A stretch of DNA of 64,000 nucleotides, taken from positions 44,311-108,310 of the forward strand of contig JADKDK010000009.1 of NCBI GenBank assembly GCA_016718385.1. The letters run 5' to 3'. A program made the translations under genes and the position numbers. Positions within the stretch are counted from its first letter, which is position 1, and the number at the start of each line of letters is the position of its first letter. Of this stretch, positions 33,061 to 59,066 are shown in pieces. Source of the stretch: Gammaproteobacteria bacterium. Its GTDB lineage: Bacteria; Pseudomonadota; Gammaproteobacteria; Pseudomonadales; UBA5518. The notes under the pieces were generated by a model, which was given only the letters and a program-made list of their open reading frames with translations, was not told the DNA's origin and did no database searches.

Positions 33061-35724
33061 TCAGATCGTGCCCTGGACGAACTCCGCGACCGCCACCGGA
33101 TCGATCACCGGACGCGGATTGAACATCGTGCTGGGGTCGCTCATCGTGCCGACGACGATCTGCTCGAAGTTCTGCCTGATGCGTTCGGCCGGCACCAATT
33201 CCGATAGACGCGTGGGCTGCCCGATGCGCTTCATCAACGCTTCGACCGCATCGGCCGCGGCGTCGGCCGCCTCGGCATCGCTCATGCCGTGCGTGTTCAC
33301 GCCGAGCGCCTGCGCCACCTCGGCCAGCCGCTTCGAGGCGTGGTCGCGGTTGAAACGCATCGCCGCCGGCAACGCGATGCCGCAGCCCGTGCCGTGATGC
33401 ACGCCGAGCAGCATGCCGATCGTGTGCGCATAGCAGTGCGCGATGCCGAGTCCCGGCCCCAGCGCCATGCCGCCCAGCGTGGAGGCAACCAGCATGTTCT
33501 GACGCGCCTCGAGGTCGGCGCCGTCGGCCACTACGCGCTCGAGGTTGTCGCGCACCAGGCGCACCGACTGCAGGCCGAGCCCGACCGTGATCGGGTTGCC
33601 GGTCGGATTCACGACGCTCTCGATCGCGTGCGTCAGCGCGTCCATGCCGGTACCGATCGTGATGTGCTTCGGCAGCCCCGTCACCAGCGTCGGATCGAGG
33701 ATCGCGACGTCGGGACACAGGTTCACGTCATTGATGAAGAACTTGCGGTGCAGCCGGCTGTTCGTGATCACGCCCGCGGTCGTGACCTCGCTGCCGGTGC
33801 CGTGCGTCGTGGGAACCGAGACGTGCGGCAGTTGCCGGCCCTCGAGACGCATCAGGCTCATGGCCTGCAGCGCCGAACCGCCGCCCGTGAGCGCGACCAG
33901 AGTCAGCTTCGCGCAGTCGATCGAGCTGCCGCCGCCGAGGCTGACCAGGCTGTCGGCCTGCACCGAGCGGCAGTAATCGAGCGCCTCCTGCGCGCACTCG
34001 TAGGTCGGATCCGGCACCACGCCGTCGAAGACGCCCACGCAGCGCTCGCCGGCGGCGAGCAGCGCACGGTCCACCAGCCCGGCGGCGCGCACGCCGGCGT
34101 CGGTGATGATCACCGCGCGGCGCGCGCCGAGGATGCGCAGCTCGTTGCCTAGCCCGGCCAGCGCCTTCGCTCCGCACAGGATCTTGCTCGGCACCTTGTA
34201 GACGAAGTTCTGCCCCGGCGGATACGCGAACAACGCGCCGAAGGTGCCGCGATTCGCGTTGCCCTCGTTGGAGATGTAGATCGACTTGGTCTGCGTGTAG
34301 CTCTTCAGCCCTTCCTCGCCGAACTCGCGCCCCATGCCGCTGCTCTTGTAGCCGCCGAAGGGCACGAAGTCGGCCAGCATCGAGATGTCGTTGATCGACA
34401 GGATGCCGGTGCGCACGCGGTTCGCGAGGCGCCGCGCGCGCCGCGTGTCGGTCGAGAACACGCAACCCGCGAGGCCGAAATCGCTGTCGTTGGCGATCGC
34501 CACCGCCTCGTCGTCACCGTCGAAGGGGATCACCGCCAGCACCGGCCCGAAGATCTCCTCGCGCGCGACACGCATCGAGTTCGTGACCCCGATCAGGATG
34601 GTCGGCGCGAAGTAATACCCGCTGTCGTAACCGGGCCCGCTCACCCGGTGCCCGCCGCAGGCGAGCTGCGCGCCTTCCTCGCGCGCGAGTTCCACGTAAC
34701 GCTCCACCGTCTCGAGTTGCTTGCGGCTGGCGAGGGGGCCCATCTTCGTGTCGGGCAGCAGCTGGTAGCCGACCTTCAGGTCCTGGATCCGCCGCGTCAG
34801 GCGCGCGACGAACTCGTCGTGGATGCCGCGCGCGAGCAACAGTCGCGAGCCCGAGATGCACACCTGGCCCGCGTTCTGGAAATTGGCCGTGATCGCACCG
34901 TCGACCGCCACGTCGAGATCGGCGTCGTCGAGCACGATGTTGGCGGACTTGCCGCCGAGTTCCAGCGTCACCGGCTTCAGCCCGCCGGCCGCCGCGTTCA
35001 TGGTCGACTTGCCGACGTCGCTGCTGCCGGTGAACGAGATCTTGTCGACGCCGGGATGCGAGGACAGCGCCTCGCCGACGCTGCCGCCCGGCCCCGTGAT
35101 CACGTTGAGCACGCCCGGCGGTATCCCGGCCTGGTTCGCCAGCGCGGCGATCACCAGCGCCGACAGCGGCGTGGACGAGGCCGGCTTCAGCACCAGTGTG
35201 TTGCCCATCACCAGCGCGTGGGTGATCTTCCACATCGCCATCGCGTAGGGAACGTTCCACGGCGCGATCGCGGCGCACACACCGATCGGCTCGTGCCGGA
35301 TCACGTTCTCGCCCCACGCGAACACCGATCCCGAATGCGCGACCTCCTCCTCCCAGCGGAACTTGTTGGCCGCGTACCAGGCGAGGTTGCGCATGGTGTT
35401 GCACGACACCCACAGACCGCCGGCGACCCACGCCAGCGGCGACCCGTTGCTGCGGCTGTCGGCCATCGCGATGGCGCCCGCGTTCGCCTCGACGAGATCG
35501 GCGAAGTGGAACATGATGTCGGCCCGCTCGCCGGGCGCGAGGCCGCTCCAGACACCCGAATCGAAGGCCGCGCGCGCGGCACGCACGGCGGCGTCCACGT
35601 CGCGCTGGTCGCAGCTCGGCACTTCGGCGAAAGCCTCGCCGGTGCCGGGGTCGATGACCTGCATCGTCTTGCCGCCGAGCGCGTCGGCGAACCCGCCGCC
35701 GATGAACATCTGGTATTTGTCCAT
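33061..35724 (-). CDS. Fusion protein: aldehyde dehydrogenase + iron-containing alcohol dehydrogenase, 887 aa (paralogue of 19641..22304)
   Basis: ATG 35724 (MDKYQMFIGG). It has the same length and the same motifs as the first copy, and roughly 80-90% aa identity by eye. Confidence 0.85.
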   Translation of the reverse strand: MDKYQMFIGGGFADALGGKTMQVIDPGTGEAFAEVPSCDQRDVDAAVRAARAAFDSGVWSGLAPGERADIMFHFADLVEANAGAIAMADSRSNGSPLAWVAGGLWVSCNTMRNLAWYAANKFRWEEEVAHSGSVFAWGENVIRHEPIGVCAAIAPWNVPYAMAMWKITHALVMGNTLVLKPASSTPLSALVIAALANQAGIPPGVLNVITGPGGSVGEALSSHPGVDKISFTGSSDVGKSTMNAAAGGLKPVTLELGGKSANIVLDDADLDVAVDGAITANFQNAGQVCISGSRLLLARGIHDEFVARLTRRIQDLKVGYQLLPDTKMGPLASRKQLETVERYVELAREEGAQLACGGHRVSGPGYDSGYYFAPTILIGVTNSMRVAREEIFGPVLAVIPFDGDDEAVAIANDSDFGLAGCVFSTDTRRARRLANRVRTGILSINDISMLADFVPFGGYKSSGMGREFGEEGLKSYTQTKSIYISNEGNANRGTFGALFAYPPGQNFVYKVPSKILCGAKALAGLGNELRILGARRAVIITDAGVRAAGLVDRALLAAGERCVGVFDGVVPDPTYECAQEALDYCRSVQADSLVSLGGGSSIDCAKLTLVALTGGGSALQAMSLMRLEGRQLPHVSVPTTHGTGSEVTTAGVITNSRLHRKFFINDVNLCPDVAILDPTLVTGLPKHITIGTGMDALTHAIESVVNPTGNPITVGLGLQSVRLVRDNLERVVADGADLEARQNMLVASTLGGMALGPGLGIAHCYAHTIGMLLGVHHGTGCGIALPAAMRFNRDHASKRLAEVAQALGVNTHGMSDAEAADAAADAVEALMKRIGQPTRLSELVPAERIRQNFEQIVVGTMSDPSTMFNPRPVIDPVAVAEFVQGTI

Positions 35725-35807
35725 GATGACCTCTGTATACCGTGAGTCGAATTGCCACCTGCCACGGGGGAGCCGCACCGGTCGGCACGCCCCGCAGCGA
35801 CCGGCCA

Positions 35808-35847
35808 CAGATTAAACTTAGCCGTAAGCCTGATCCAGTGAAGATTT
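35808..35847 (-). promoter_or_regulatory. Conserved AT-rich 40-nt element upstream of the ALDH::ADH gene (copy 2)
   Basis: cagattaaacttagccgtaagcctgatccagtgaagattt lies 84-123 nt upstream of the start and matches copy 1 at 35/40 positions. Confidence 0.4.
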
Positions 35848-36123: not shown

Positions 36124-38622
36124 TCAACCGCCTCCGAACGCGTAGCGGACGCTGAGTCCGAGCTCGCGCTCCGGCAGCACCGATACACCGCGATAGCCCG
36201 ATGAGAATTCTGCCAGAGTCGCATCGGAATCGAGCTGCAGCAACGTATCCTCGTCGAGCGCGTTCTTGGCCCACAACGTCACGTCCCAGACGCCGTCGCT
36301 GCTGCGCACACCCGCATACAGATTCAGCATCGTGTACGCCTTTCGCTCGAACCCCGTGCTGAAATTGTCATTGTCGGGCTGGTAGTTCAACAGCCCGCGC
36401 AGGTAGTACTCCACGGTGTCGCGTGGCATCACGTACTCCGACTGCAGCGTCGCGTTCCAGTCGGGCAGGTTCGAAATCGCGTCGTCGGACCGGCAGAATG
36501 CGACCACTGTGCCTTGCGGCCATGCCGCAACCGGTGGATTCGATCCGTTGTCGGACTTGCCGTCGAAGTCCGAATCACGACACGGCACCTCGGCATCGTC
36601 GTACTCGCCCTTCTGCGTGCTGAACATGAACTGCGTGGTCCAGTCCGGCGTGATCATCCAGAACACATCGGCCTCGAAGCCGTAGGCGATCGCATCGGCG
36701 TTGTACGTGAAACCGCCCTCGCTCACCGTCTGGGTGTTCGTGTCCAGGTAAGGGACATCCTCGAAGCGACCGATGAAGCCCTCGAAACTCTGGTGGAACA
36801 GGGCCGCGTTCAGGCGCAGCCGGCGATCCAGCCACTCGGACTTGATGCCGAGTTCGAACGCGTCCGATTCCTCCGGCGCTCCGAATACCAGATCGTCGGG
36901 CACATCCGCCGTGATTCCCACCGTGATCCCCGGCGGCCGCCACGAGTGCGCTGCCGTAAAATAGACCATCACGTCATCGCTCACACGGTACTTCACGGAA
37001 GCGTCGTACACCCACTCCTTGTAGGTGTCTCCAGCCGGGGTAAACGTCGACGGCAACGCGATTCTGATATCGCAGTAGCCTGTGTAGAACTCGCGCACCC
37101 ACTCCGAACCTGGACCCGCGGGCGCAGGCGCCACGCTATTCAGTATCGTCGGACAAAGACCGGACGCCAGATTGTCGAGCGGCACACCCGGGGTAATCGG
37201 CGCCGGATTCAGAAACGGAGCGAATACGAACGTCTCGGAACGATCGCTTTCCTCCTCGAGATAGCGCGCACCGACGCCGATATCGAGCCGATCGTTCACG
37301 TGAAAGTCGAGGTGCCCGAACACTGCCTTGTTCTCGGCTCCCGCCGGAATCCGGATATCGAGCCCGAGCAGATACTCCTGCACCGCGGGGCCACGAGGTA
37401 CCGCAGGAATACCGAAGGCTCCGGTGAGTTCGGCGGACTGGTGCAATTTCGTATCGGTTTCGGTGTCGCTGTACCAGAGCCCGAGGTTGTAGTCCACGCG
37501 GCGCTCGCCGGCGGACTCGAGCCGCAGTTCGTGCGACGTAACCTCGAAGTCGGTGCGCACCTGCTGCAGTTGCAAATGGTCGACGATCGCATTGCCGACG
37601 TCGAGATCACTAGCGAAGCGGTTCTTCAGGTCCTGATAGCCGCCGATATAGACCAGCCTGTGCCCAGCGCCTTCCCAACTCGCCTGAAGCGATGTCAAAG
37701 CGATATCCTGCTCCTGCGTACCGATCCCCTCGACGACGCTCCGACGATCACTGGCGGACAATGCGGGGCCGTTGTAACCGGCGCCCGGTCCCTGCACGAA
37801 ATCGAAACGCTCGACGTCGCGATCCATTTGGTGATGCGTGAACAGGAAGCTCAGGTTCTCGACGGGCTCGAACAGCACGGTCGCTCTCACGCCCTCGTCA
37901 TCCACTTCCTGCTCGTCACCGGCCAACGTCCTGCCACCGGGCCCTTCGTTGACGTTCCTGATCGCGGCAACGCGCAGCGCCAGTTTGTCCTGCACCAACG
38001 GCACGTTCAGCGCGGCCTGGAGGTTCTGCGCGTCCGCGTCCGAGAACGAGGCCGACACAGTGCCACCGACGTCGTTCAGGTCCGGGCGCCGCGTGATCAC
38101 CGTAACCGCCCCGGCCGGCGCCGGACGCCCGCGCAGCGTGCCCTGCGGGCCGCGCAGCAATTCCATCTGCTGGACATCGAACAGGCTGTTGAACACGTAG
38201 ACGGCGTCGACCGGCAGTTCGTTGATGTAGACGTCGACCGCCGGCGGCGCCGAGGAGTTCGGTGCGAAACCGATGCCGCGCACCGCGATCACACCGGGTT
38301 CGCGCGCGGTGCTGGTCATCGCGAGGCCCGGAGTCACGGCAGCGAAATCGTCGAACTCGAACAGCTTGAGCTCATCCAGTTGCTGCCCGGTCAGCGCGGT
38401 CACCGACAGCGCGACTTCCTGCAGATTCTGTGCGCGCCGCGTCGCGGTGACGACGATTTCCTCCAGGACAGCGTCGTCGCCGCTTGGCTGAGCGGACGCG
38501 GGGTGTACGGCCGCTACAGCGGCCGCTACGGCGAAGAATAGCGCGCCGCGGCGCATGTGATGGCCGTACCGTCGCGAACGCCCCGCTGCGTAAGGCAGCC
38601 GTGTGGTCGACAGTGTGTTCAT
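36124..38622 (-). CDS. TonB-dependent receptor
   Basis: 832-aa ORF. The likely start is ATG 38556 (MRRGALFFAVAAAVAAVHPASA signal peptide). Plug motif LEEIVVTATRRAQNLQEVALSV. It begins 42-108 nt downstream of the cluster A isomerase-like gene. Confidence 0.9.
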   Translation of the reverse strand: MNTLSTTRLPYAAGRSRRYGHHMRRGALFFAVAAAVAAVHPASAQPSGDDAVLEEIVVTATRRAQNLQEVALSVTALTGQQLDELKLFEFDDFAAVTPGLAMTSTAREPGVIAVRGIGFAPNSSAPPAVDVYINELPVDAVYVFNSLFDVQQMELLRGPQGTLRGRPAPAGAVTVITRRPDLNDVGGTVSASFSDADAQNLQAALNVPLVQDKLALRVAAIRNVNEGPGGRTLAGDEQEVDDEGVRATVLFEPVENLSFLFTHHQMDRDVERFDFVQGPGAGYNGPALSASDRRSVVEGIGTQEQDIALTSLQASWEGAGHRLVYIGGYQDLKNRFASDLDVGNAIVDHLQLQQVRTDFEVTSHELRLESAGERRVDYNLGLWYSDTETDTKLHQSAELTGAFGIPAVPRGPAVQEYLLGLDIRIPAGAENKAVFGHLDFHVNDRLDIGVGARYLEEESDRSETFVFAPFLNPAPITPGVPLDNLASGLCPTILNSVAPAPAGPGSEWVREFYTGYCDIRIALPSTFTPAGDTYKEWVYDASVKYRVSDDVMVYFTAAHSWRPPGITVGITADVPDDLVFGAPEESDAFELGIKSEWLDRRLRLNAALFHQSFEGFIGRFEDVPYLDTNTQTVSEGGFTYNADAIAYGFEADVFWMITPDWTTQFMFSTQKGEYDDAEVPCRDSDFDGKSDNGSNPPVAAWPQGTVVAFCRSDDAISNLPDWNATLQSEYVMPRDTVEYYLRGLLNYQPDNDNFSTGFERKAYTMLNLYAGVRSSDGVWDVTLWAKNALDEDTLLQLDSDATLAEFSSGYRGVSVLPERELGLSVRYAFGGG

Positions 38623-38663
38623 GGTTCGCCTCCGATGTTATGGGTGTGATGTGGAACCTGGTT

Positions 38664-39908
38664 TCAACTGCGAAACGCCTCCCTGCCATGGCCCTGCACT
38701 GCGATCCCCTGCACCGCGAGCACGTCGTGCTGCAGCGCATGCATCGCCGCGGCTGCCTCGTCGATCGCCTTCACGAACGCCAGCGAGCCGGCCAGGATCG
38801 GCGCCAGCCGGGTGCGATCCTGCACCCGCGCCGGTGGATACTCGTGTTCCACGACCAGGAAGGTCTGCGCCGGATCGAGCGTGAGGTACTCGCGCGCGGC
38901 GAGCTGATGATCGAGCCAGTCGACCGAGCGGTTCTGCAGGTACGCCAGCGGGTCGTGCCGGGCGGTGCCCGGCAGTTCGTGCTCGCAGAACACGGTCTGC
39001 TTTTTCCACGCGTTGGCGCGCGCCGACGGCGCCGCCAGCGGCTGCGCGCCCTCCCAGTCCCCGCGCAGCATCGTCTGCCCGCCGTAGCCCCACGCGGAGA
39101 TACCGCGAGCGTCGATCACCTGGCCCTTGACGTGAAAGCCGCCGATGAGGAACGGGTAGCCCATGTCGCGCAGGTAACGGAACACCGAACGCGAGTCCTG
39201 TCCGATCAGGATCGCGTGCGACGGGTCGTAGTGGATGCGGAACTGGTCCGCGACGCCGTGCCGCTCGCAGATGCGGTGCAGCGCGATCCATGGGCCGGGT
39301 GCGTAGGCGATGTTGTTGTGCCAGAGGTCGTTGGCGGTCCAGCCCGGCATCGGGCAGGGTTCGACCCGGTAGACCAGCCCGCGCTCCTTCGCCGCCGCGA
39401 GCAAGGGCACGAACACGTCCTCGAACATCACCAGGTTCGCGTCCATCGACAGCAGCGCGTTGCGACCCACGAAGCCACACACCGCATCCACACCGAGCAG
39501 CACCGCGGCGTCGAACACCCGGCGCATGAACTCGTGCTTGCGCCGGCGCAGCCCCGCGTCGGCGATCAGCATGTTGTCGAAGTACCCGAGGTCGCAGATC
39601 CCTGCCCCGCTGGTGCGTGTCGCGGCCAGCACACGCGCGGCGCGCGCGGAATCGAACGGCCGGCGCAGGTCGAGCGTGTTCGCGACCGGGTCGAGCATCG
39701 CCTCGGTCGGCACATCGCTGTGCTCGGGGTGCAGCGCGGCCGAGAGCTGGATGTACGGCGCGCCGATCCCGGCCGCGAACGCGAGCCAGTCCTCGATCGC
39801 GCGATCGGGGTCGGCGTCGCGCACGGCACGTGGCGTCAGCTCCTGCAGCGCGGCCGTCAGGATGCCGAGCTTCATGTGGCGGGGACGAAACGACGGCTCC
39901 GCGCTCAT
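38664..39908 (-). CDS. Cluster A gene 6: sugar phosphate isomerase/epimerase-like TIM-barrel protein with long C-terminal extension (414 aa)
   Basis: ATG 39908 overlaps the upstream stop (ATGA). Sequence [21 protein letters not shown]..., ...[12 protein letters not shown].... The upstream part of ORF 38664..40724 is rejected as read-through. Confidence 0.65.
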
Positions 39909-41050
39909 TCCCCGAGCTCCGTCCAGACCGAACCGCCGCGGTTGGATTCGATCACGGCCTCGAGGAAGCGCATGCCGCGCACTCCCGCCTCGATGCCGCG
40001 AAAGCGCTCGTGCGCACCGGCGTCGCCGTCGAGCGCGTCGGCGAAACCGCGGTAGAGGTTCGCCATCGCCTCCACCAGACCTTGCGGATGTCCGGGCGGC
40101 AACTGGCTCGCGCCCCGCCCCAGTGCTTCGTTGAACGCGTGCGCCGGCGTAAACACCTGCATCGGCGCGTCTTCGCGCAGATGGATCAGCTGCGCCGGCG
40201 CGTCGTGGCACCACTTCAACGCGCCGTGGCTGCCGTACACCGCGAGGCCCACGCTGTTCTCCTCGCCCGTCGCGACCTGGCTCGCGCGCAGCACACCGGG
40301 CACGCCGTCTGTGGTCCGCAGCAGCGTGGTGCCGTCGATGTCGAGCCCGCCTGCACCGGGCATCGCACGCAGATCGGCCAGCACGCGCTGCACGCGCAGC
40401 CCGGTGGTGTACTCGACGAGGTCGAAGGCGTGCACGCCGATATCGCCGTAGCAGCAACTCGGCCCGGAGCGCGCCGGATCGAGGCGCCAGATCGCGGCGC
40501 GCGACCCGGCGTCCTGCAGCGCCGGATTGATCCAGCCCTGGTAATAGCGCGCATCGATCTTCTGCACCGTCCCGATCGCGCCGGCCGCGATCAGCGCACG
40601 CATCTGGCGCACCATCGGGTAGCCGGTGTAGGTGTGCGCCACGCAGACCAGACGGTCGTTCGCCGCGGCCACGCGCGCCAACTCGTCGGCCTGCCCGGCG
40701 GTCACCGTGAACGGCTTCTCGCAAATGACATGCAGACCTGCGCGCAACGCGCCGAGCACCTGCTCGAAGTGCAGGTGGTTGGGGGTGAGCACCGCGATCG
40801 CCTCGATGCGCTCACCCCGCGGGAGCGCGCGTTCGGCCGCGAACAGCGCGGGCAGATCGGCATGGACGCGGCGCTCGTCGAGTCCGAGCGCGTGCGCCCA
40901 GGCGCGCTCGCGCGCGGGATCGGTACCGAACACCCCGCCCTTCAACGCGAAGCGCTCCGACAAGGCCGCCGCCGCGCGGTGCACCCCACCGATCAGCGAT
41001 CGCCGCCCACCGCCGACGAAGGCAAGCGGAATCCGCCGTCCCGCAGCCAT
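39905..41050 (-). CDS. Cluster A gene 5: Gfo/Idh/MocA family oxidoreductase (381 aa)
   Basis: ATG 41050 overlaps the MFS stop (TGATG). Rossmann [18 protein letters not shown], then the family motif [10 protein letters not shown]. Confidence 0.85.
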
Positions 41051-42273
41051 CACCGCACCCCTTCCGTACGACTGGCAGCGTCACGGAACAGCAACAGGAA
41101 CAGCACGAAAACCACAAAGGCCAGTCCCGCCGGGAACAACCAGACCGATTGCCATGCGTGAGCGCCGTCCTGCGCGTGGCGATCGGTGATCTGGCCGGCG
41201 ACGGCGAAGCCGATCAGCATACCGAGCCCGTAAGTCGCGAGCGTCAACAAGCCCTGCGCCGACGCCTTGAAGCGCTCGCCGGCACGCGCATCGGTATAGA
41301 CCTGGCCGGCCACGAAGAAGAAGTCGTAACAGACGCCGTGCAGCGCGATGCCGAGCAGCAGCATCCACAACCCCTCGCCGGCATCGCCGAAGCCGAACAG
41401 CGCGTAGCGAAGACTCCAGGCGAGCATTCCCGCCAGCAGCGTGGCCTTGATGCCGATGCGACGGAAACACCACGGCAGCAGCAGGATGAACCCCGCCTCG
41501 GAGATCTGCCCGAGCGTCATCTTGCCGGTCGGGTTCGTGACGCCGGCTTCCGAGAGGAACAGGTTCGCATTTTGGTAGTAGAACGCGAGCGGCACGCAGA
41601 TGAGGATCGCCGAGCAGAAGAAGACCGCGAAATTGCGGTCGCGCAGCAGACCGAGCGCATCGGCGCCGAAGAGTTCGCGCAGTTCCTGCACCCCGTGCGC
41701 GCGCGGCGGCGTGGCCGGCAGCGTGAAGCTGTAGAGTCCCTGCACCACCGAGGCGATCGCCGCCAGCAGGAAGGTGTTGCGCAGCATGCCCTGCGCCATG
41801 CGCGCGGCATCGTCCCAAGCGAACACGTAACTGATCGCCAGCCCCGCGACGATCCAGCCGATGGTGCCCCAGATGCGCACCGCGGCGAACTCGGCCGCCG
41901 GATCGCTCATCTGGCGGAACGCCACCGCGTTCACGAGCGCCAGCGTCGGCATGTAGACGGCCATGTAGGCCAGCGCCGACGGATAGAATGCCGCGAAGTC
42001 GCCCGCCACGTGCATCGTCCACAGCAGCGCGGCACCCGCGAGGTGCAGCAGACCGAGGATGCGCTCGGCATTGAAAAAGCGATCGGCGATCAGGCCGATG
42101 AACAGCGGCGCGACGATCGCCCCCCACGACTGGGTAGCGAACGCCATGCCGGTCTGCGCACCGGTGGCGTCCAGGTTGGTCGCGAGAAAGGTACCCAGCG
42201 TCACGAACCAGGCGCCCCAGACGAAGAACTGCAGGAACATCATGATGCCCAGACGCAGGCGGATCGTGATCAT
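41050..42273 (-). CDS. Cluster A gene 4: MFS transporter, nucleoside:H+ symporter-like family (407 aa)
   Basis: 12-TM-like ORF starting MITIRLRLGIMMFLQFFVWGAWFVTLGTFL, typical of the NupG/XapB-like Nuc_H_symport family. Confidence 0.8.
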   Translation of the reverse strand: MITIRLRLGIMMFLQFFVWGAWFVTLGTFLATNLDATGAQTGMAFATQSWGAIVAPLFIGLIADRFFNAERILGLLHLAGAALLWTMHVAGDFAAFYPSALAYMAVYMPTLALVNAVAFRQMSDPAAEFAAVRIWGTIGWIVAGLAISYVFAWDDAARMAQGMLRNTFLLAAIASVVQGLYSFTLPATPPRAHGVQELRELFGADALGLLRDRNFAVFFCSAILICVPLAFYYQNANLFLSEAGVTNPTGKMTLGQISEAGFILLLPWCFRRIGIKATLLAGMLAWSLRYALFGFGDAGEGLWMLLLGIALHGVCYDFFFVAGQVYTDARAGERFKASAQGLLTLATYGLGMLIGFAVAGQITDRHAQDGAHAWQSVWLFPAGLAFVVFVLFLLLFRDAASRTEGVR

Positions 42274-42294
42274 GGGCGGTTCGCTCCGTGTCGT

Positions 42295-42651
42295 TCAGCG
42301 CTGCGCGGACACGCCGGGCAGGCCGCGCTGCGCCAGCCAGGCATCGAGCAAGCCAGGCCACGCACCCAGCGTGCGATCGCGCATGGCAAGCTCGAGACCG
42401 TGACGACCGTGTCCGAAGACGTGCAACCCGGCGGGCACCTTCGCGGCGAACCAGTCGGCGACCTGCCGTCCTTCGTGGCCGGTCGCGAGCGCCTGGTAGC
42501 CGCCGCCCGGTGCGACGATGATCGCCGAGCCGTTCGTCACCGCGCCATCGGTGCCGCTCAGCGTCAGCTTGGGCGTGTCCTGCGGCGCGTCACCGCGTGC
42601 GTGCGGTGCATGCCCGCCCGATGGCAACTTCCCGGCCGCGCTTGCGATCAC
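42295..42651 (-). pseudogene. Collapsed alpha/beta-hydrolase remnant (118 aa ORF), present only in cluster A
   Basis: GSAIIVAPGGGYQALATGHEGRQVADWF (N-terminal esterase-like block) is joined directly to LHVFGHGRHGLELA...WLAQRGL (C-terminal His block). The nucleophile-elbow region is absent. Confidence 0.35.
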
Positions 42652-42660
42652 GTCCGCCTC

Positions 42661-44352
42661 CTACACCTGCCCGTCGCGCCAGCGCGTCGCCGCGTGATCG
42701 GCCGCGCGCGCCGTCAACGCCATGAAGGTGAGCGAGGGATTCACCACCCCGCAGGAACTCATGCTGGCACCGTCGGTGACGTAGAGGTTCGGCACCTCGT
42801 GCGCACGGTTCCAGGCATCGAGCACCGAAGTCTTCGGATCACGGCCCATGCAGGCGCCGCCCATCTCGTGGATCGCGTCGCCGGGCACCGACGGCCGCGC
42901 GAGCGCCACCACGTTCTGCATGCCGGCGGCTTTCAGCATCGCCTCGGCCTGCGCCGCCGAATCGGCGTTGAGCTTGGCCTCGTTTTCTCGAAAGCGCACA
43001 TCGAAGCACAGCTGCGGAACTCCGTGTCTGTCGACCAGCCGCTCATCCAGCGTGACGCGGTTGTCGTGGTACGGCAGGCATTCGGTGAATGCCGCAAGGA
43101 ACATCGCCCACGCCGGCGGCTGGCGCAGCGACTCCTTGAACGCGGCACCGAATCCGGGCAGTGCGGTTGCAATCAGTTTGCCCTCGAGGGGCGTGGCCTG
43201 GCCCTGATAGCCATAGCCGCGCAGAAAATCGCCGTCTGCGCGTACCGGATCAAGATTACGGAAGCGAGGTATGTAGATCCCGTTCGGGCGGTAGCCACGG
43301 TAATACCTGCCGATGAACTCGGTCGTGATACCGAAGGCGAACGCCCCGTTCTGGTGGTCCATCACGTAGCGGCCAAGCATCCCGCTGCCATTCGCCAAAC
43401 CGGCCGGAAAACTGTCCGAGCGTGAGTTCAGCAGGATCTGCAGGCTGCTGATCGTCGACGCACACAGAAACACCAGTCTCGACGTGAAGCGCATGCGTTC
43501 ACCGCTCACGGTATCGATCACCCGCACGCCACTTACGCGTCGCCGCAGAGGATCGTAGTCCAGCCCTTCGACCACGCTGTTCGCGCGCAGCGTCAGTCGA
43601 CCGGTCTTGCGCGCCGCCGGCAGGGTCGAACTGAGACTGCTGAAGTAGGCGCCTGGCGAGCAACCGCGCTGACATATACCGCAGTAATGACAGGCTCCTC
43701 GATCACCGAGCGGCTTCGTCAGGTTGGCGACACGCCCGATCGTCACCGGCCGCTCAGGGAACTGCGCTTCGATGCGCTGCTTGAGGGCCTTCTCGACCGC
43801 ATACATCATCATCGGTGGCTGGAAGATGCCGTCCGGCAGGTGTGGCAGTCCTTCCGACTGACCGCTGACCCCGATAAAACGCTCCACGTGCGCGTACCAC
43901 GGATCGAGGTCACGGTAGCGGATCGGCCAGTCGACACCGTGTCCATCGCGCCGGTTGGCCTCGAAATCGAGGTCGCTCCATCGGTAGACCTGCCGGCCCC
44001 ACAACAGCGACTTGCCGCCGACGACGTCGGCACGCAACCAGTTGAATGGCGCCTCGGAGGCGGTCGTGTACGGATAATCGGAGTCCTTGATCCAGAAGTG
44101 CCGCGTGGTCTCGTCGAACGCGTAGGACTGGCTCTGTACCGGATAATCCCGCGCGTAGAGCTCGCGCAGCGGCTTGCCGCCGAACGGGATCTCCCACGGC
44201 GGCATGTGTTCGGTCACGTAATCCCTGCCGTGCTCGAGCGGTCGTCCGCGCTCGAGCACCAGCACCTTCAGTCCCTTCTCGGTGAGTTCCTTCGCGGCCC
44301 AGCCTCCCGAGACGCCGGAACCCACCACGATCGCGTCGAACTCGTCACTCAT
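42661..44352 (-). CDS. Cluster A gene 3: GMC family FAD-dependent oxidoreductase (563 aa)
   Basis: AGGAGG-N8-ATG 44352. FAD fold FDAIVVGSGVSGGWAAKELTEKGLKVLVLERG and a C-terminal NLYVTDGASMSS block. It has no signal peptide of its own. Confidence 0.88.
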   Translation of the reverse strand: MSDEFDAIVVGSGVSGGWAAKELTEKGLKVLVLERGRPLEHGRDYVTEHMPPWEIPFGGKPLRELYARDYPVQSQSYAFDETTRHFWIKDSDYPYTTASEAPFNWLRADVVGGKSLLWGRQVYRWSDLDFEANRRDGHGVDWPIRYRDLDPWYAHVERFIGVSGQSEGLPHLPDGIFQPPMMMYAVEKALKQRIEAQFPERPVTIGRVANLTKPLGDRGACHYCGICQRGCSPGAYFSSLSSTLPAARKTGRLTLRANSVVEGLDYDPLRRRVSGVRVIDTVSGERMRFTSRLVFLCASTISSLQILLNSRSDSFPAGLANGSGMLGRYVMDHQNGAFAFGITTEFIGRYYRGYRPNGIYIPRFRNLDPVRADGDFLRGYGYQGQATPLEGKLIATALPGFGAAFKESLRQPPAWAMFLAAFTECLPYHDNRVTLDERLVDRHGVPQLCFDVRFRENEAKLNADSAAQAEAMLKAAGMQNVVALARPSVPGDAIHEMGGACMGRDPKTSVLDAWNRAHEVPNLYVTDGASMSSCGVVNPSLTFMALTARAADHAATRWRDGQV

Positions 44353-44403
44353 ACCGCACTCCCCTCCTGACCGGCTTCGTCGATACCCGCCTCGCACGCA
44401 TAC

Positions 44404-45009
44404 TCAGTAGCTCCATTGCCTGCCTAGTTCAGCGTAATCGAGGTCTCCGTCGAAGCGCATCGGCATCGGCTCGTAAATCATGAACTTCGTGGCGCCGACC
44501 TCGGAGCTGAAGTAGCCGATCACCGTGAGTTCCTTCAGCTTGGTGAAGAACGGCGTGTGCTCGTCGACCAGCTTGCTCATGCCGCCGAGCGCACCGCCGG
44601 GAAGCGGACTGACGTAGCGCGCGGCGTCCTGCTCGGCGGCGGACAGCAAGGCTGTGCGCTGCGCTTCGTCGGCCGCCACGAAGCTCTTGCCGTGCGCGGT
44701 GCGACTGGCCTGATCGAGTGCCGCCAGGCCCTGCACGAAGATCGTGCGCTCGGTGTCGGTGTACCAGTCCGCGACCATCGTCTCGATGAACGCGGGCACG
44801 CCGGCCTCGAGCGCGCCGGGCGTATCGGTCGCCGGAACGATCATTTCGGCGAGCAGGTCGACCAGTTGCCGCTGGGCGGCGTCGAACACGGCGCGCGATG
44901 CCTGCGCGTGCGGCTTCTCCCCTGCGATCGCGCGCAAGGTCGGCGAACCCGGCAGCGCCGCGGTACCGAGCGCCGCGACCACGAGGTGCAGCAGATGACG
45001 TCGATTCAT
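44404..45009 (-). CDS. Cluster A gene 2: gluconate 2-dehydrogenase subunit 3-like small subunit with Tat signal (201 aa)
   Basis: ATG 45009, MNRRHLLHLVVAALGTAALPG (twin-arginine). The conserved blocks ATDTPGALEAGVPAFIE and ELTVIGYFSSEVG are typical of the family. Confidence 0.7.
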   Translation of the reverse strand: MNRRHLLHLVVAALGTAALPGSPTLRAIAGEKPHAQASRAVFDAAQRQLVDLLAEMIVPATDTPGALEAGVPAFIETMVADWYTDTERTIFVQGLAALDQASRTAHGKSFVAADEAQRTALLSAAEQDAARYVSPLPGGALGGMSKLVDEHTPFFTKLKELTVIGYFSSEVGATKFMIYEPMPMRFDGDLDYAELGRQWSY

Positions 45010-45031
45010 GGTAACCAGTCCCTCTGTTTGC

Positions 45032-45925
45032 TCAGGGTTCACACGCCAGCGGCGCTGGAGAGGCCAGCGGCGGGTCCTGCCGGCCGGCCCAGTCGAGCGC
45101 GCGCTCGAGCATCGCGCGGTACGGCGGTTCGGCGTAGGTTTCGGCCGTGTGCCCGGGCGCGGCGTAGAACACGCGCCCGCGGCCCACGCAATGCTTCCAC
45201 ACCATCGGATGATCCGGGCCCATCGCGAGCTCCTTGCTGAAGAAACTCCCGGGCCGGTAGGTGTTCTCGTCGATGGTCGCCAGCACGCGCAGATCGCTGG
45301 CACGCGGACTGGCGGCGAAGGAATACCACTCGTCGGTACGCACCCACGCGGCCGGGATGCCGTCCATGATCGGATCCGCGGGCTGCTCGATACGCAGCGT
45401 CGCCTGCTGGAACTGCGGATCCATCGGATGACCGGTGAACTGTGCACGGATCACCGTGTCGAGGTACCACGGCCACGCGGCATGGCTGTTGTCACCGGCC
45501 GCGTGCAGGCCGATATACCCACCGCCCGCCTCGAGCCAGGCCTGGAACGCCTCGCGCTGCTCGGGCAGCAGTACATCGCCGGTGACGTTGTTCCAGACCA
45601 CCACGTCGAACTTCGCGAGATCGTCGGCGTTGAACACGGCGCCGCTGTCGCTCACGAAGACGCCCCAGTCGCGCGCGCCCGCGATGTCCTGCAGCAGGCG
45701 CTTCGCGGCGGGAATCGCGTCCTCGTGGATGAACGAATTGGTCTTCGAGAACACCAGCATCGACGGACGCGGCAACGCCGGCACGGCAGGCCGTTCGGTT
45801 TCGAACACCGGCGCGCGGAAAAAGCCCATCGCGCGCATCTGCCAATACGTGTAGCCGGCGAACAGCAACCCGCCGACGATCACGACGACGAGTGACCTCC
45901 GGACCCATTTCCAACCGGCTTGCAT
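45032..45925 (-). CDS. Cluster A gene 1: ThuA-domain (trehalose-utilisation-like) protein with N-terminal membrane anchor (297 aa)
   Basis: GGAGGG-N5-ATG 45925. TM segment SLVVVIVGGLLFAGY, then VLVFSKTNSFIHEDAIPAA, FDVVVWNNVTGD and GGGYIGLHAAGD. Confidence 0.7.
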   Translation of the reverse strand: MQAGWKWVRRSLVVVIVGGLLFAGYTYWQMRAMGFFRAPVFETERPAVPALPRPSMLVFSKTNSFIHEDAIPAAKRLLQDIAGARDWGVFVSDSGAVFNADDLAKFDVVVWNNVTGDVLLPEQREAFQAWLEAGGGYIGLHAAGDNSHAAWPWYLDTVIRAQFTGHPMDPQFQQATLRIEQPADPIMDGIPAAWVRTDEWYSFAASPRASDLRVLATIDENTYRPGSFFSKELAMGPDHPMVWKHCVGRGRVFYAAPGHTAETYAEPPYRAMLERALDWAGRQDPPLASPAPLACEP

Positions 45926-46034
45926 CGGCACCCTCCGGCTGCTTCGGCAGCGGTAGTTATCGTTGCTCTGTGCGGCGCCACGCCCGGTCGTTGCCGCGAC
46001 ACGGGCACGGGCGGGACGATCGGGCATCCCGAAT

Positions 46035-46052
46035 GATGTAATCGTTTACATC
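46035..46052. promoter_or_regulatory. LacI-family operator-like palindrome in the cluster A / lacI divergent region
   Basis: GATGTAATCGTTTACATC is self-complementary at 16/18 positions. It lies 110 nt upstream of thuA-like A1 and 131 nt upstream of the LacI gene. Confidence 0.6.
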
Positions 46053-46182
46053 GTACCAGACGTTCTTCGGACGTCAACCCTGCGATTTCGATCGCCCGGC
46101 CGACCATTGCACACCGCTCTCCCTGCGAACACACGCGCGGGTGATAGCATGCGCGGCGACGCAATATAAGGAATACACTCCG

Positions 46183-47193
46183 ATGGCGAATATCAAGGAC
46201 GTCGCGCGGCTCGCGGGCGTCTCGGTGGCGACGGTATCGCGCACCCTGGACGGATCCCCCAAGGTCACCGCAGCGACGCGCGCGCGGGTGCTCGAGGCGG
46301 TCGCCGCCTGCGGCTACGTGACCAACGCGCTGGCGCGCAATTTCCGCCAGCGGCGCACCCACACCGTGCTGGTGCTGGTGCCCGACATCGCCAATCCGTT
46401 CTTTTCCAGGATCATCCGCGGCATCGAACGCGTCGCGCTGGAGCACGGTTACCGCATCCTGCTCGGCGACACCCAGTACAACGCCGAGCGCGAACGCGCC
46501 TACGCGGCCCTGGTCACGCAACGCCAGGCCGACGGCATCATCTGCCTCGGCATGAACATCCCGTTCGCGACGGGCCGCAGTCGCTCGCGGCTGGATCCGG
46601 ACTGGCCCCCGTTCGTGATGGCCTGCGAGTACGACGGAGAGATTCCGGCACCCACCGTGTGCATCGACAACGTCCGGGCGGCCACCGAGGCGACCCGGCA
46701 TCTGCTGGACCTGGGGCACCGCGACATCGCGTTCATCAGCGGGCCGCGCGCCTCCCCGCTGTGCCGTGACCGCCTGGCCGGCTTCACGGAGGCGATGACG
46801 GCAGCAGGGTTGCGCGTGCGGCGCGAACGGGTGCGCTACGGCGACTTCTCGCTCGCGGCCGGTCACCAGCAGATGCGCGCGCTGCTGGGCGGCGCTCGAA
46901 CACCCAGCGCGGTTTTCTGCGCCAACGACGAAATGGCGATAGGCGCGCTGCGCGCCGCCCGCCAGGCCGGCCTGTCGCTGCCGCGTGAACTGTCGATCGT
47001 CGGCTTCGACGACATCGCGTTCGCCGAGTTCGCAACGCCGGCGCTGACGACGATCCGCCAGCCCCGCGAACAGATCGGCGTTCGCAGCATGCATTTGATG
47101 CTCGAGATCCTGCGCGATGGCCAGCAGCCGGGGCGGCGGATCGTGCTCACGCACGAACTGGTGGTGCGTGAATCGAGCGTGGCGGCGCCGTGA
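46183..47193 (+). CDS. LacI family transcriptional regulator
   Basis: ATG 46183, MANIKDVARLAGVSVATVSRTL (HTH), with a periplasmic-binding-protein-like core (...IVGFDDIAFAEFATPALTTIRQP). Confidence 0.92.
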   Translation: MANIKDVARLAGVSVATVSRTLDGSPKVTAATRARVLEAVAACGYVTNALARNFRQRRTHTVLVLVPDIANPFFSRIIRGIERVALEHGYRILLGDTQYNAERERAYAALVTQRQADGIICLGMNIPFATGRSRSRLDPDWPPFVMACEYDGEIPAPTVCIDNVRAATEATRHLLDLGHRDIAFISGPRASPLCRDRLAGFTEAMTAAGLRVRRERVRYGDFSLAAGHQQMRALLGGARTPSAVFCANDEMAIGALRAARQAGLSLPRELSIVGFDDIAFAEFATPALTTIRQPREQIGVRSMHLMLEILRDGQQPGRRIVLTHELVVRESSVAAP

Positions 47194-48559: not shown

Positions 48560-50164
48560 TCACGGCGCCGCAGCGTGGGTGATGGCAAGCAGTTCGATCG
48601 ACGGGGGAGCCAATGTCTGCGCAATCCTGACGTCGCCACCCTTGAGTGTCACCGTACTGAGTAGGCGAAAATCCCAGACGTCGTTGATCCGAAAGCGCTG
48701 CACCCGATAGAACTTTCGAGGATCCAACCCGGTCACGCGAAGATCGAAGCCGTCATTTCGCGCGTAACTCAGCGGGCGGCGCGGCAGCAGGTTTATCTTA
48801 TATCCGGCCCCGGCAATCGTGTCGCCATCAGGTCGTGGAGCGCGCAGACTGGCCGGCACCTCATAGTTGCTGATGATTATGTTGATCGTGTTGCTGTCCG
48901 TCGATTTTCCGGCCAGGACCGCCAGACCCTGATTGTCGTCGCCACTGACGTGGAGGCGAACCGGCGTATCCTTCATGCTTCCCAGCGCGACCATGGCCTG
49001 CCCGATCTTGTTGGGTGTACTCCCGTGCTCGCCGAACAGATTGGGGCCCATGTAGAAGGTCTGCTCGTCGATCGGGGAATCCTGCATGTAGATGATCGCC
49101 GATGCCGTGAAAGCCGCGCGTCCTCCCAGCGTCAGCAGTTCCGGATCGATACCGAGGACATTCCACTCGCTGAGCACGAGCCTGGTCTTCCTGAACCCGT
49201 GCGCGTCGAGCAGCGCGCGCATGTCGCGGGCAATACGCACGTACTGATACGGGTCCGCGGAATCTATCGCATAGTCGTGAAAGGACCAGAAATCGAGCGG
49301 CAACTTGTTGCGTCGCAGGTACTTCAGGAAATCTTCCCGATAGTCGGGGCCGTTGTAGTTGAACATCAGCGCCGGTCCTCCGATCGCGGCTTCAGGGTCA
49401 GCCGACTTCACTGCCCTCGCCAACTTCGCATACAGCGTGTAGTACTTGAGCGAATCGAAACGGCCATCCGGTTCGTTCAGGACTTCCCAATGCTCGACCC
49501 CGTAATTGAAGCCACTGTTCCATCCCTTGTTGTAATGCAGGACGATGTGACGGACGATTTCCGCATAATGTTCGAAATCCCGTTCGCTGGTGAAGGAATC
49601 CGGCACGCCGCTGTGTTCCCCCGCGCTGGCTCCGATCCTGAACAGCGGCTTGGCGCCAATGCCGTAGATGGACTGCAGCAGCCGGTCGGTGGGCCCGAAG
49701 TTGTAGCTGGCCGCATCGGCGGGGTCCGCATCAGGCTTCGGGAACATCACGAGTGCATTGAAGGCAGACGCAGGCACGAACGTGCCATCGGCCATTTCGC
49801 GTGTCCCCGTGAAGTTCGCATACACATCTCCCGGGCCGTAATTGTCGTGAATGCGGACCAGTTCGATGTTCGCCGCGCGATAACCGCTCGATGCATCCGC
49901 TCCGAGCGACCGATAACCTGTGCGATCGGACACCTCCACCACGTCATGGAGGCGCTCCACGGCCGGCCGGTCGCTCCATGGAAGCGGTCCCGAATTGACG
50001 CCGCGCAATGGCTTCATCGGTCCCAGGTCGCTCGACGCATCGACAGTGATCTCGCGCAACTCAGCCATGGTGCCCACTGCAACTGCCTGGGAATGGGCGG
50101 CCTGCGTGACAACCAGCAGGCACATGAATGCTGCCGCATTGATCGGATTGAATCGGCTCATCAT
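48560..50164 (-). CDS. Secreted glycoside hydrolase, clan GH-A (GH39-like)
   Basis: Signal peptide MMSRFNPINAAAFMCLLVVTQAAHSQA. The acid/base motif is HWEVLNEPD and the nucleophile motif is VLSEWN. Family-level assignment is by eye only. Confidence 0.55.
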   Translation of the reverse strand: MMSRFNPINAAAFMCLLVVTQAAHSQAVAVGTMAELREITVDASSDLGPMKPLRGVNSGPLPWSDRPAVERLHDVVEVSDRTGYRSLGADASSGYRAANIELVRIHDNYGPGDVYANFTGTREMADGTFVPASAFNALVMFPKPDADPADAASYNFGPTDRLLQSIYGIGAKPLFRIGASAGEHSGVPDSFTSERDFEHYAEIVRHIVLHYNKGWNSGFNYGVEHWEVLNEPDGRFDSLKYYTLYAKLARAVKSADPEAAIGGPALMFNYNGPDYREDFLKYLRRNKLPLDFWSFHDYAIDSADPYQYVRIARDMRALLDAHGFRKTRLVLSEWNVLGIDPELLTLGGRAAFTASAIIYMQDSPIDEQTFYMGPNLFGEHGSTPNKIGQAMVALGSMKDTPVRLHVSGDDNQGLAVLAGKSTDSNTINIIISNYEVPASLRAPRPDGDTIAGAGYKINLLPRRPLSYARNDGFDLRVTGLDPRKFYRVQRFRINDVWDFRLLSTVTLKGGDVRIAQTLAPPSIELLAITHAAAP

Positions 50165-51528: not shown

Positions 51529-51544
51529 ATGTAAACGTTTACAT
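51529..51544. promoter_or_regulatory. Perfect 16-bp LacI-family operator-like palindrome
   Basis: ATGTAAACGTTTACAT is perfectly self-complementary and is related to the 46035-46052 site. It lies about 340 nt upstream of the Tat TIM-barrel/GH operon start, in a 480-bp spacer. Confidence 0.6.
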
Positions 51545-56674: not shown

Positions 56675-56691
56675 GAGGCCGGCTCCCCGCG

Positions 56692-58382: not shown

Positions 58383-58463
58383 TCCCCGATCCTCTTGTCG
58401 TTTTCGCGCGTCAGGCCCGTTACGCCCCTCGACCTTGCGCCGCACTACACGCCCTGCCGGCGC

Positions 58464-59066
58464 TCAGTGACTCCAGTGCGTCCCCACCTTGGCGAAGTCG
58501 AAGTCACCGTCGTAGCGCATGGGCATGGGGTTGTATTCGAGGAACTCCGTGGCCCCGAGTTCGGAGCTGAAATAGCCCACCACTGTCAGCTCCTTGAGCT
58601 TGGCGAAGAACGGCGTGCGCTCATCGATCAGTTTCGCCATCGTCGCCAGGAATCCCGGCGGAAGCGGACTCACGTAAGCGGCGGCGTTCTTCTCGGCCTC
58701 GGAGAGTGCCGCAACACGCTGCTCGGCGGTGCACCCGAGGAAATCCGTGCCGTAGGCGGTGCGGCAGGACGCATCGAGCGCCGCGAGGCCGTCGAGAAAG
58801 ATCCCGCGCTCGGTATCGGTGTACCAGTCGGCGACCATCATCTCGATGAAACGCGGCACACCGGCCTCGATGGCGCCCGGCGTATCCGTCGCGGGGAGGA
58901 TCATCTCGGCGAGCACGCGCACCATCTCCGGCTGGTGGCCCTGCAGCACCACCCGGGATGCCGAGGTGGTCGGCGCCTCGCCGGCAATCACGCGCAGCGT
59001 GGGCGAGCCGACCATGACCCCGGCCATCGTGGATATGGCCGCCAGCATCATTTCACGTCGGTTCAT
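58464..59066 (-). CDS. Cluster B gene 2: gluconate 2-dehydrogenase subunit 3-like Tat small subunit (200 aa)
   Basis: MNRREMMLAAISTMAGVMVG..., ATDTPGAIEAGVPRFIE, ELTVVGYFSSELG. Confidence 0.7.
   Translation of the reverse strand: MNRREMMLAAISTMAGVMVGSPTLRVIAGEAPTTSASRVVLQGHQPEMVRVLAEMILPATDTPGAIEAGVPRFIEMMVADWYTDTERGIFLDGLAALDASCRTAYGTDFLGCTAEQRVAALSEAEKNAAAYVSPLPPGFLATMAKLIDERTPFFAKLKELTVVGYFSSELGATEFLEYNPMPMRYDGDFDFAKVGTHWSH

Follow-up and report, generated by a model that had tools for sequence, protein, structure and literature searches.

A stretch of 64,000 nucleotides from a gammaproteobacterial contig (JADKDK010000009.1; hereafter the window) carries on its minus strand a set of genes, here termed cluster A, that appears to specify an oxidative route for the uptake and processing of glycosides. 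The window has a G+C content of about 68%, and all genes of the minus-strand unit were called from a listing of open reading frames (ORFs), G+C content by codon position, and Pfam and NCBIfam scans. The original prediction for this DNA, made from the sequence alone, had placed seven genes between 45925 and 36124 of the minus strand beside a divergent LacI gene, and all of them were found where it had placed them. The gene overlaps that it reported, TGATG between the permease and oxidoreductase genes and ATGA between the oxidoreductase and TIM-barrel genes, are likewise real. The features of cluster A, beginning with the regulator, are as follows:

46141-47193, plus strand: LacI-family repressor, divergent from the unit (Pfam LacI and Peripla_BP domains)
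45032-45925, minus strand: ThuA-domain protein, 297 residues (PF06283, 195 bits), with an N-terminal hydrophobic anchor
44404-45009, minus strand: small subunit, 201 residues (PF13618 Gluconate_2-dh3, 127 bits), with a twin-arginine signal
42661-44352, minus strand: GMC flavoprotein, beginning at its FAD-binding motif, no signal peptide
42295-42651, minus strand: remnant of an esterase (alpha/beta-hydrolase) gene, 118 residues, with a coding-like G+C fraction at third codon positions (GC3) of 0.83
41050-42273, minus strand: major facilitator superfamily (MFS) permease of the nucleoside:H+ symporter (NHS) family, 407 residues (PF03825 Nuc_H_symport, 378 bits)
39905-41053, minus strand: Gfo/Idh/MocA oxidoreductase (Gfo), 381/382 residues, identified by Pfam
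38664-39908, minus strand: TIM414, a xylose-isomerase-like TIM barrel of 414 residues (PF01261, 38 bits, partial match)
36124-38622, minus strand: TonB-dependent receptor (TBDR) A, with Pfam plug and beta-barrel domains

The receptor probably starts at Met23. The gene order of cluster A recurs in other lineages; in one such locus (L091) the ThuA protein and the receptor are 66% and 64% identical to their counterparts in the window. The apparent 390-bp gap between the GMC and MFS genes is the site of the esterase remnant, for which no Pfam match was found. A full-length esterase gene holds this position in the closest relative (L004) and is missing from L005; only 175 bp of the remnant align with the L004 gene. 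BD-FAE/Abhydrolase_3 esterases are also annotated in the related loci L090, L092, L093 and L095.

Two copies of a perfect LacI-type palindrome are present in the window, where 0.04 would be expected by chance:

46037-46050: operator 1, perfect palindrome TGTAATCGTTTACA
51530-51543: operator 2, palindrome TGTAAACGTTTACA, intergenic, upstream of a second TIM-barrel gene (TIM2)

Operator 1 abuts the -10 element of a sigma-70-like promoter (46077-46050, minus strand), which is the only such promoter found in the 11.6-kb stretch between 35.7 and 47.3 kb, and no terminator-like sites were found at gene ends in that stretch. Hence, by these signals, cluster A is predicted to behave as one repressible operon. 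The same motif lies upstream of the ThuA gene in L004, L005, L090 and L093, and the operator 2 site was also found in L097. The window LacI is 53-55% identical to the LacI proteins of the ThuA-type loci L090, L092 and L093, and both LacI and operator are kept in the Pseudomaricurvus and Aestuariicella loci. Its best NCBIfam model, by a wide margin, is CytR (365 bits, below the cutoff of 436). Because the identical operator lies upstream of TIM2, this gene and the one downstream of it probably belong to the same regulon as cluster A:

50207-51187, minus strand: TIM2, a xylose-isomerase-like TIM barrel with a signal for twin-arginine translocation (Tat), 326 residues (PF01261, 111 bits)
48560-50164, minus strand: secreted glycoside hydrolase resembling glycoside hydrolase family 39 (GH39), 534 residues (PF01229, 54 bits), with a Sec-type signal peptide

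The predicted periplasmic dehydrogenase and its ThuA-domain partner

The GMC flavoprotein is 46% identical over its full length (254 of 556 residues; BLASTP E 8e-163) to the glycoside dehydrogenase GlycDH of Rhizobium sp. GIN611, the reference sequence having been read by optical character recognition from the supplement of PMC10628242. The position at which GlycDH oxidises O- and C-glucosides is C3, and the enzyme was produced and purified together with a Tat-signal partner (PMC10628242). Both elements of this arrangement, which typifies the GlycDH, G3DH and LacA enzymes, are present in the window: the catalytic subunit begins with MSDEFDAIVVGSG and is devoid of a signal peptide, and the adjacent small subunit opens with a signal, MNRRHLLHL...AIA-G, that reads as one of the twin-arginine type. 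In view of the full-length identity to GlycDH, the pair can be filed at the sequence level with the glycoside 3-dehydrogenases, with C3 as the presumptive position of oxidation. The same identity sets the flavoprotein apart from the choline and alcohol oxidases, a kinship that the original prediction had named as incompatible with its own proposal. As a candidate choline dehydrogenase the protein was rejected because its score against the curated model is far below cutoff.

Among proteins of solved structure, the flavoprotein comes nearest to the catalytic subunits of fructose dehydrogenase (FDH) and of the Burkholderia FAD-dependent glucose dehydrogenase (FAD-GDH), at E values of about 1e-40. 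A cysteine motif of the window protein, ACHYCGICQRGC, aligns with the Fe-S cluster cysteines of both enzymes, and includes one cysteine more than FDH or GDH. A GMC protein encoded by a Sphingomonas plasmid is 51% identical and has DUF1080, TIM-barrel, MFS, Gfo, cytochrome c and LacI genes as neighbours. A search for cytochrome c across the whole window recovered no CxxCH motif in any ORF with coding-like codon bias.

The ThuA-domain protein displays a KWVRR motif and an 18-residue hydrophobic stretch at its N-terminus, both conserved in homologues, and its ThuA domain is predicted to face the periplasm. Homologues with 50-74% identity all keep the N-terminal anchor, and in all six contexts sampled they adjoin genes for the small subunit and the GMC protein, in varying order. 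Given this constant adjacency, ThuA, small subunit and GMC protein form a conserved trio. It stands where clusters of the Sphingomonas and Caulobacter type carry cytochrome c and/or DUF1080. The window ThuA protein shares with P0286, P0287, P0308, P0345, P0346 and P0371 an R..GF.R.PV[FY]ET motif after the anchor and a C-terminal cysteine placed among the final ~5-13 residues. It is conceivable that this C-terminal cysteine and the extra cysteine of the GMC protein provide an inter-subunit disulfide or a cluster ligand. A literature search on the combination of ThuA, GMC and glycoside hydrolase family 106 (GH106) returned no description of such a cluster; the sole pairing of GMC and ThuA that it uncovered is in the deoxynojirimycin cluster of Pseudomonas fulva, which is biochemically undissected.

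The cytoplasmic module and a second copy of the cluster

TIM414 gave no sequence match in the Protein Data Bank (PDB) and matched no NCBIfam model, and the best match of its family profile, the 2-hydroxy-3-keto-glucal hydratase AtHYD (8ro4), was non-significant (E 0.6). Foldseek searches with its AlphaFold2 model (predicted local distance difference test score of 88) retrieved SCO6571, ketose 3-epimerases and AtHYD about equally well, at E values of about 1e-10; for AtHYD the values were E 4e-10 and template modelling scores of 0.57/0.68, with the ketose 3-epimerases as good. The family is compact, with 648 matches among 1.8 billion cluster representatives, and proteins 72-81% identical to TIM414 occur in Steroidobacteraceae, Woeseiaceae, Cellvibrionaceae, Lysobacterales, Acidobacteriota and Fibrobacteria. 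Of its 414 residues 165 are invariant, including E183, D228, H231, H259 and E354/E356; such a Glu-Asp-His-Glu set is typical of the metal sites of the superfamily and makes TIM414 a candidate metalloenzyme. Identity of 72-78% is kept between Gammaproteobacteria, Acidobacteriota and Fibrobacteria, metagenome-assembled genomes with complete chromosomes included, and was seen next to Gfo partners that are 37-39% identical (loci L006-L083). That TIM414 is far more conserved than the adjoining Gfo implies unusual constraint or repeated horizontal transfer. An orthologous relationship of TIM414 to the 3-keto-glycoside 1,2-lyase AtOGE was rejected, there being no pairwise similarity.

We surveyed the neighbourhood of TIM414 at 80 species-level genome loci, where the counts of neighbours are lower bounds. 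TIM414 adjoins Gfo in at least 39 of the 80 loci, an NHS-type MFS permease (with homologues 61-64% identical) in at least 37, a GMC gene in at least 32, DUF1080 (PF06439) in at least 24, a small-subunit gene in at least 16 and a TBDR gene in at least 12. The commonest order is Gfo-MFS-TIM414-GMC-small-DUF1080. DUF1080 proteins are 3-keto-alpha-glucoside lyases and keto-glycal hydratases in the Bacteroides/Alistipes pathway (bioRxiv 2024.03.25.586180), and are encoded by lactose-specific fitness genes in Caulobacter (PMC9007349, PMC8121099). This co-occurrence with GMC, small subunit and DUF1080 is strong evidence by association that the MFS-TIM414-Gfo module processes the product of periplasmic 3-keto-glycoside chemistry.

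The MFS permease falls within PF03825 and scores 354.5 bits against the nucleoside permease model TIGR00889, below its cutoff of 446.1; it is a candidate importer of keto-sugars. Gfo, a member of its family by Pfam, is a candidate keto-sugar reductase. Its best solved structures (3v5n, 7d5m and 3dty) constitute an uncharacterised clade, and the wider clade contains scyllo-inositol/L-glucose dehydrogenase. Every NCBIfam equivalog scores far below its cutoff, the BT_2158 and BT_2159 models reach only 30 and 19 bits, respectively, and the similarity to DgpA2 is weak (29 bits). Neither an assignment of the locus to inositol metabolism nor one of Gfo as a levoglucosan dehydrogenase was accepted, as the curated cutoffs lie far above the scores.

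TIM2, whose sequence includes the Tat motif SRRVLL, is distantly similar to hydroxypyruvate isomerase. Its homologues, at 36% identity, flank GMC, small-subunit, Gfo, MFS and TIM414 genes in L029, L053 and L065, and it may be regarded as a candidate periplasmic lyase, hydratase or isomerase of keto-glycosides. It too was rejected as an orthologue of AtOGE for want of pairwise similarity.

Further along the window, a complete paralogous copy of the set, cluster B, comprises GH106, ThuA, small-subunit, GMC, MFS, Gfo and TIM414 genes:

53062-63276, minus strand: cluster B as a whole
59090-59983, minus strand: ThuA-domain protein
58464-59066, minus strand: small subunit
56692-58382, minus strand: GMC flavoprotein (GMC-B), with a 1-nt deletion at 57595
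55445-56674, minus strand: MFS permease
54303-55448, minus strand: Gfo
53062-54306, minus strand: TIM414

Between the two clusters, corresponding proteins show 64-78% identity. At the head of cluster B stands the GH106 rhamnosidase gene (PF17132, 166 bits), and the GH39-like gene lies under the same operator as cluster A, so the absence of a classical glycosidase from the core, which the original prediction had stressed, does not extend to the regulon or to the paralogous copy. Cluster B runs on past 64000, the ORF at 63512-63976 being the C-terminus of a second receptor, TBDR-B. In other, conspecific assemblies, which are 99.4-99.7% identical in nucleotide sequence, TBDR-B, a FucP-like MFS gene and an FGGY kinase gene lie upstream of cluster B. 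The source organism is common in activated-sludge metagenomes.

TBDR-A and TBDR-B are 67% identical; the receptor of L091, 64% identical to TBDR-A and 74% to TBDR-B, holds the same position after TIM414. No TBDR gene was found at the cluster locus in L004, and TBDR-A has a lower GC3 (0.79). We considered on these two grounds whether TBDR-A is a recent insertion, and rejected this in view of the 64% identical receptor in the more distant L091 and the 67% identical paralogue. Since the L091 receptor keeps the same position and TBDR-B accompanies cluster B, the receptor link is most likely ancestral, with loss of the TBDR copy in L004.

GMC-B is intact in the same-species assemblies (563 residues), and its reading as a pseudogene was rejected: three other assemblies do not show the deletion at 57595, which shortens a GGG homopolymer to GG. 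At 31249 a second such deletion (CC to C), likewise lacking in three other assemblies, splits an Old-Yellow-Enzyme gene. The two frameshifts are thus most likely errors of long-read assembly. Elsewhere on the minus strand, a methylmalonyl-CoA mutase gene is divided over two ORFs, and an ORF of 430 residues for a TonB receptor holds the barrel part alone, both anomalies lying within 24441-25887 and 26309-27601; each may be another frameshift artefact or a genuine pseudogene.

Substrate, proposed pathway and alternatives

The substrate, which the original prediction held to be unreadable from the sequence, is indicated by the genomic context, which points to rhamnose-containing glycosides. In L091 the same seven genes occur in the same order together with a GH106 gene, and directly upstream lie genes for L-rhamnose isomerase (TIGR02629, 699 bits) and a bifunctional rhamnulose-1-phosphate aldolase/dehydrogenase (NF006189, 1114 bits), both above cutoff and accompanied by a DeoR regulator and a kinase. 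The rhamnose link is seen again in L092. GH106 is present in four of seven ThuA-type contexts and BD-FAE-type esterases in most of them, and the window species carries, ahead of cluster B, an FGGY kinase, a FucP-like MFS permease, a TBDR and GH106. The natural substrate is most likely a glycan or plant glycoside that contains rhamnose and may be acetylated. In the rhamnose clusters beside the ThuA-type loci L091 and L092, a conserved protein of 550-562 residues without a Pfam or NCBIfam match (L091 5913-7601; L092 169-1821) separates the DeoR regulator from the FGGY kinase. The window also encodes two paralogous fusions, of ~890-920 residues, of an aldehyde dehydrogenase to an iron-type alcohol dehydrogenase (33061-35808 and 19641-22406, both minus strand). 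The former lies directly downstream of TBDR-A, and in L004 the fusion gene comes directly after TIM414. These fusions might handle lactaldehyde arising from 6-deoxyhexose catabolism.

Homologies, signals, operators and synteny are what we observed, and from them we infer the substrate and every catalytic step of the following scheme. The TBDR would take a glycoside or oligosaccharide into the periplasm, to which the Tat system would export the signal-less GMC protein, carried by the twin-arginine small subunit. There the GMC enzyme, by its homology to GlycDH, would oxidise the sugar ring, most likely at C3, and electrons might leave through its conserved Fe-S site, no cytochrome c subunit being encoded. 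The membrane-anchored periplasmic ThuA protein, as the invariable third partner, may tether the enzyme to the membrane or act on the keto-product. The bond thus activated may be cut in the periplasm, with the Tat-exported TIM2 as the candidate enzyme, and the GH39-like and GH106 hydrolases could trim the hydrolysable parts. The NHS-type permease would then import the keto-sugar or a 2-hydroxy-3-keto-glycal; in the cytoplasm TIM414, putatively metal-dependent, would hydrate, isomerise or epimerise it, and Gfo would reduce the keto-sugar back to an ordinary sugar.

The core idea of the original prediction, periplasmic oxidation by a GMC enzyme and Tat subunit followed by cytoplasmic Gfo and TIM-barrel chemistry, is supported by the relationship to GlycDH (46%, E 8e-163) and by the co-occurrence across 80 genomes. 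Hence we favour, with moderate confidence, an interpretation of cluster A as a LacI-repressed system for oxidative uptake and processing of glycosides, a variant of the known 3-keto-glycoside pathway of oxidation, elimination, hydration and reduction. It appears similarly probable that imported rhamnose-containing glycosides are oxidised at C3 in the periplasm, with uptake and processing of the keto-sugar in the cytoplasm to follow.

Several points weigh against this interpretation. We know of no precedent for the oxidation of rhamnosides. The characterised GlycDH acts on glucosides (PMC10628242). In L094 the trio sits between XylA and XylB, that is, among xylose and not rhamnose genes, and consequently it is not exclusively linked to rhamnose. 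The cytochrome c search of the window yielded no electron acceptor and no DUF1080 was found in the window; neither TIM414 nor TIM2 resembles the known lyase AtOGE in sequence, and the likeness of TIM414 to AtHYD is at the level of the fold and does not exceed that to ketose epimerases. Moreover, TIM414 is without a nearby pathway partner in about 20 of the 80 genomes.

A more far-reaching version unites three proposals: that ThuA is a third dehydrogenase subunit, that TIM414 is a new enzyme and that rhamnosides are cleaved by an oxidative, non-hydrolytic route. In this combination ThuA would be the membrane-anchoring subunit of a heterotrimeric periplasmic glycoside dehydrogenase of a hitherto undescribed kind, replacing cytochrome c, and TIM414 would be a cytoplasmic 2-hydroxy-3-keto-glycal hydratase or 3-keto-sugar isomerase. 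We advance it as a tentative and, taken as a whole, rather doubtful combination. If true, it would provide the first mechanistic role for the ThuA family, and TIM414 would close the step that concerns the fate of the 3-keto-sugar in periplasmic G3DH pathways.

The main rival reading, though still an unlikely one, is a shuttle of free sugars without oxidative cleavage of a glycosidic bond, in which the GMC enzyme would oxidise a free monosaccharide or a sugar acid that GH106 or GH39 has set free, thereby feeding electrons to the respiratory chain, and the MFS permease, TIM414 and Gfo would import and re-reduce the keto-sugar. Its model is the gluconate 2-dehydrogenase (gad) of Pseudomonas together with kguE/T/K/D under the LacI-type regulator PtxS. 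By family, the small subunit is a gluconate 2-dehydrogenase subunit 3, and the closest structures to the GMC protein, with Fe-S cysteines kept, are those of the free-sugar fructose and glucose dehydrogenases. The absence of DUF1080 from the window, the classical glycosidases in the regulon and the paralogous copy, and the embedding of the L094 trio between XylA and XylB also fit such a shuttle. However, the resemblance of the GMC protein to GlycDH (E 8e-163) is much stronger than its resemblance to FDH or GDH (E 1e-40), the partners of TIM414, MFS and Gfo elsewhere include the DUF1080 family of 3-keto-glycoside lyases and hydratases, and the operon has neither a kinase nor a cytochrome c subunit.

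We consider it very unlikely that the locus serves the use of nucleosides or of N- or C-glycosides, including the cleavage of aryl C-glycosides in the manner of CarA/CarBC or DgpA/DgpBC. This possibility is raised by the 378-bit match of the MFS permease to the nucleoside symporter family of Pfam, by CytR as the best LacI model, by a nucleoside hydrolase near the related locus L095 and by the ability of GlycDH to oxidise C-glucosides as well. Nevertheless, the MFS permease and LacI are both below the curated cutoffs, the same MFS family is conserved beside DUF1080/GMC clusters, and the locus has no nucleoside phosphorylase, deaminase or deoxyribose genes, no second small subunit of the CarC/DgpB type and no PDB sequence match to C-glycoside lyases. 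Least probable of all is cyclitol catabolism, with Gfo as inositol dehydrogenase, TIM414 as inosose dehydratase or isomerase and the GMC enzyme acting on a cyclitol (glycoside). In its favour, the wider clade of Gfo includes scyllo-inositol/L-glucose dehydrogenase, and IolE and IolI, as TIM barrels, share a superfamily with TIM414. Against it, the IolG model TIGR04380 gives 60 bits where its cutoff is 355, and no NCBIfam model matches TIM414, which removes the IolG/IolE grouping that the original prediction had thought would overturn it; no genes or domains of the iolB, iolC or iolD type were found in the window, and the genomic surroundings consist of GH106, GH39, DUF1080 and rhamnose genes.

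Relationship to known oxidative glycoside systems

Oxidative, non-Koshland cleavage of glycosides has been recognised as widespread only recently. The two-compartment oxidative logic of the pathway favoured here is already known, and the finding is not categorically new, since the lac system of Caulobacter (with its fitness data), the Agrobacterium GlycDH operon and BT2156-60 are precedents. Accordingly, the original prediction went too far in treating the presence of all parts in one locus as unusual, given that Caulobacter lacABC, the Sphingomonas plasmid cluster and the Agrobacterium GlycDH operon share this logic.

The GlycDH operon of Agrobacterium tumefaciens/Rhizobium GIN611 encodes GlycDH, a Tat small protein, the lyase AtOGE, the hydratase AtHYD and a Gfo reductase (PMC10628242). 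The window resembles it in its 46% identical GMC protein with an adjoining Tat-signal small subunit, and in having Gfo and two xylose-isomerase-like TIM barrels in the regulon. In contrast to that operon, the TIM barrels of the window have no sequence similarity to AtOGE and TIM414 resembles AtHYD only at the fold level; the window adds a membrane-anchored ThuA protein, an NHS-type permease and a TonB receptor, and its pathway seems to be divided over two compartments, periplasm and cytoplasm. The lacABC genes of Caulobacter crescentus specify a periplasmic lactose/glycoside 3-dehydrogenase and are found with DUF1080, a transporter, two epimerases and a reductase, of which the transporter, epimerases and reductase are needed for growth on lactose (PMC9007349, PMC8121099). 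By gene role, this system matches the window in its periplasmic, membrane-associated GMC dehydrogenase and its cytoplasmic set of transporter, TIM barrels and reductase. The lac dehydrogenase, however, is a three-component enzyme described as cytochrome-c dependent, whereas the window has ThuA and no cytochrome c; similarly, DUF1080 is part of the lac cluster and not of the window. The fate of 3-ketogalactose in Caulobacter was reported by Price et al. to be unknown (PMC9007349).

The BT2156-2160/Alistipes pathway likewise proceeds by C3 oxidation, 1,2-elimination through TIM-barrel or DUF1080 enzymes, hydration and reduction by Gfo/Idh/MocA proteins (bioRxiv 2024.03.25.586180), but the oxidase of Bacteroides thetaiotaomicron is a Tat-exported Gfo/Idh/MocA protein and not a GMC enzyme. 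With gluconate 2-dehydrogenase, FDH and the Burkholderia FAD-GDH the window shares a GMC protein with an Fe-S cysteine cluster and a hitch-hiker subunit of the Gluconate_2-dh3 family; the similarity is only of the order of E ~1e-40, and those enzymes use free sugars and have as third subunit a multihaem cytochrome c, which the window lacks. With the ThuAB system of Sinorhizobium and Agrobacterium, which converts trehalose to 3-ketotrehalose, there is the common association of a ThuA domain with a sugar 3-dehydrogenase, and to this extent the parallel drawn by the original prediction stands. It is only a loose parallel because ThuA here partners a GMC protein rather than Gfo. The window ThuA is, in addition, membrane-anchored and predicted to face the periplasm, it is paired with both GMC and small subunit, it has no ThuB-type partner beside it (Gfo lies four genes away), and the thuEFGK ABC transporter is lacking. 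From CarA/CarBC and DgpA/DgpBC the window differs in that TIM414 has no PDB sequence or profile match to the lyases and in that there is no ORF for a small beta-subunit.

Against this background, three features appear undescribed, namely the ThuA-small-GMC trio free of cytochrome c, TIM414 as a family and the connection with rhamnose; literature searches on these subjects found no description of them. The locus bears on the electron acceptor of the periplasmic enzyme, the fate of the keto-sugar and the function of ThuA proteins, and supplies testable candidates in the form of the trio and of the pair formed by the highly conserved TIM barrel and the NHS-type permease. If the rhamnose link is true, the 3-keto pathway would be extended from the systems compared above to 6-deoxyhexosides, compounds plentiful in pectins, in the ulvans of algae, in the exopolysaccharides of bacteria and in the flavonoid glycosides of plants.

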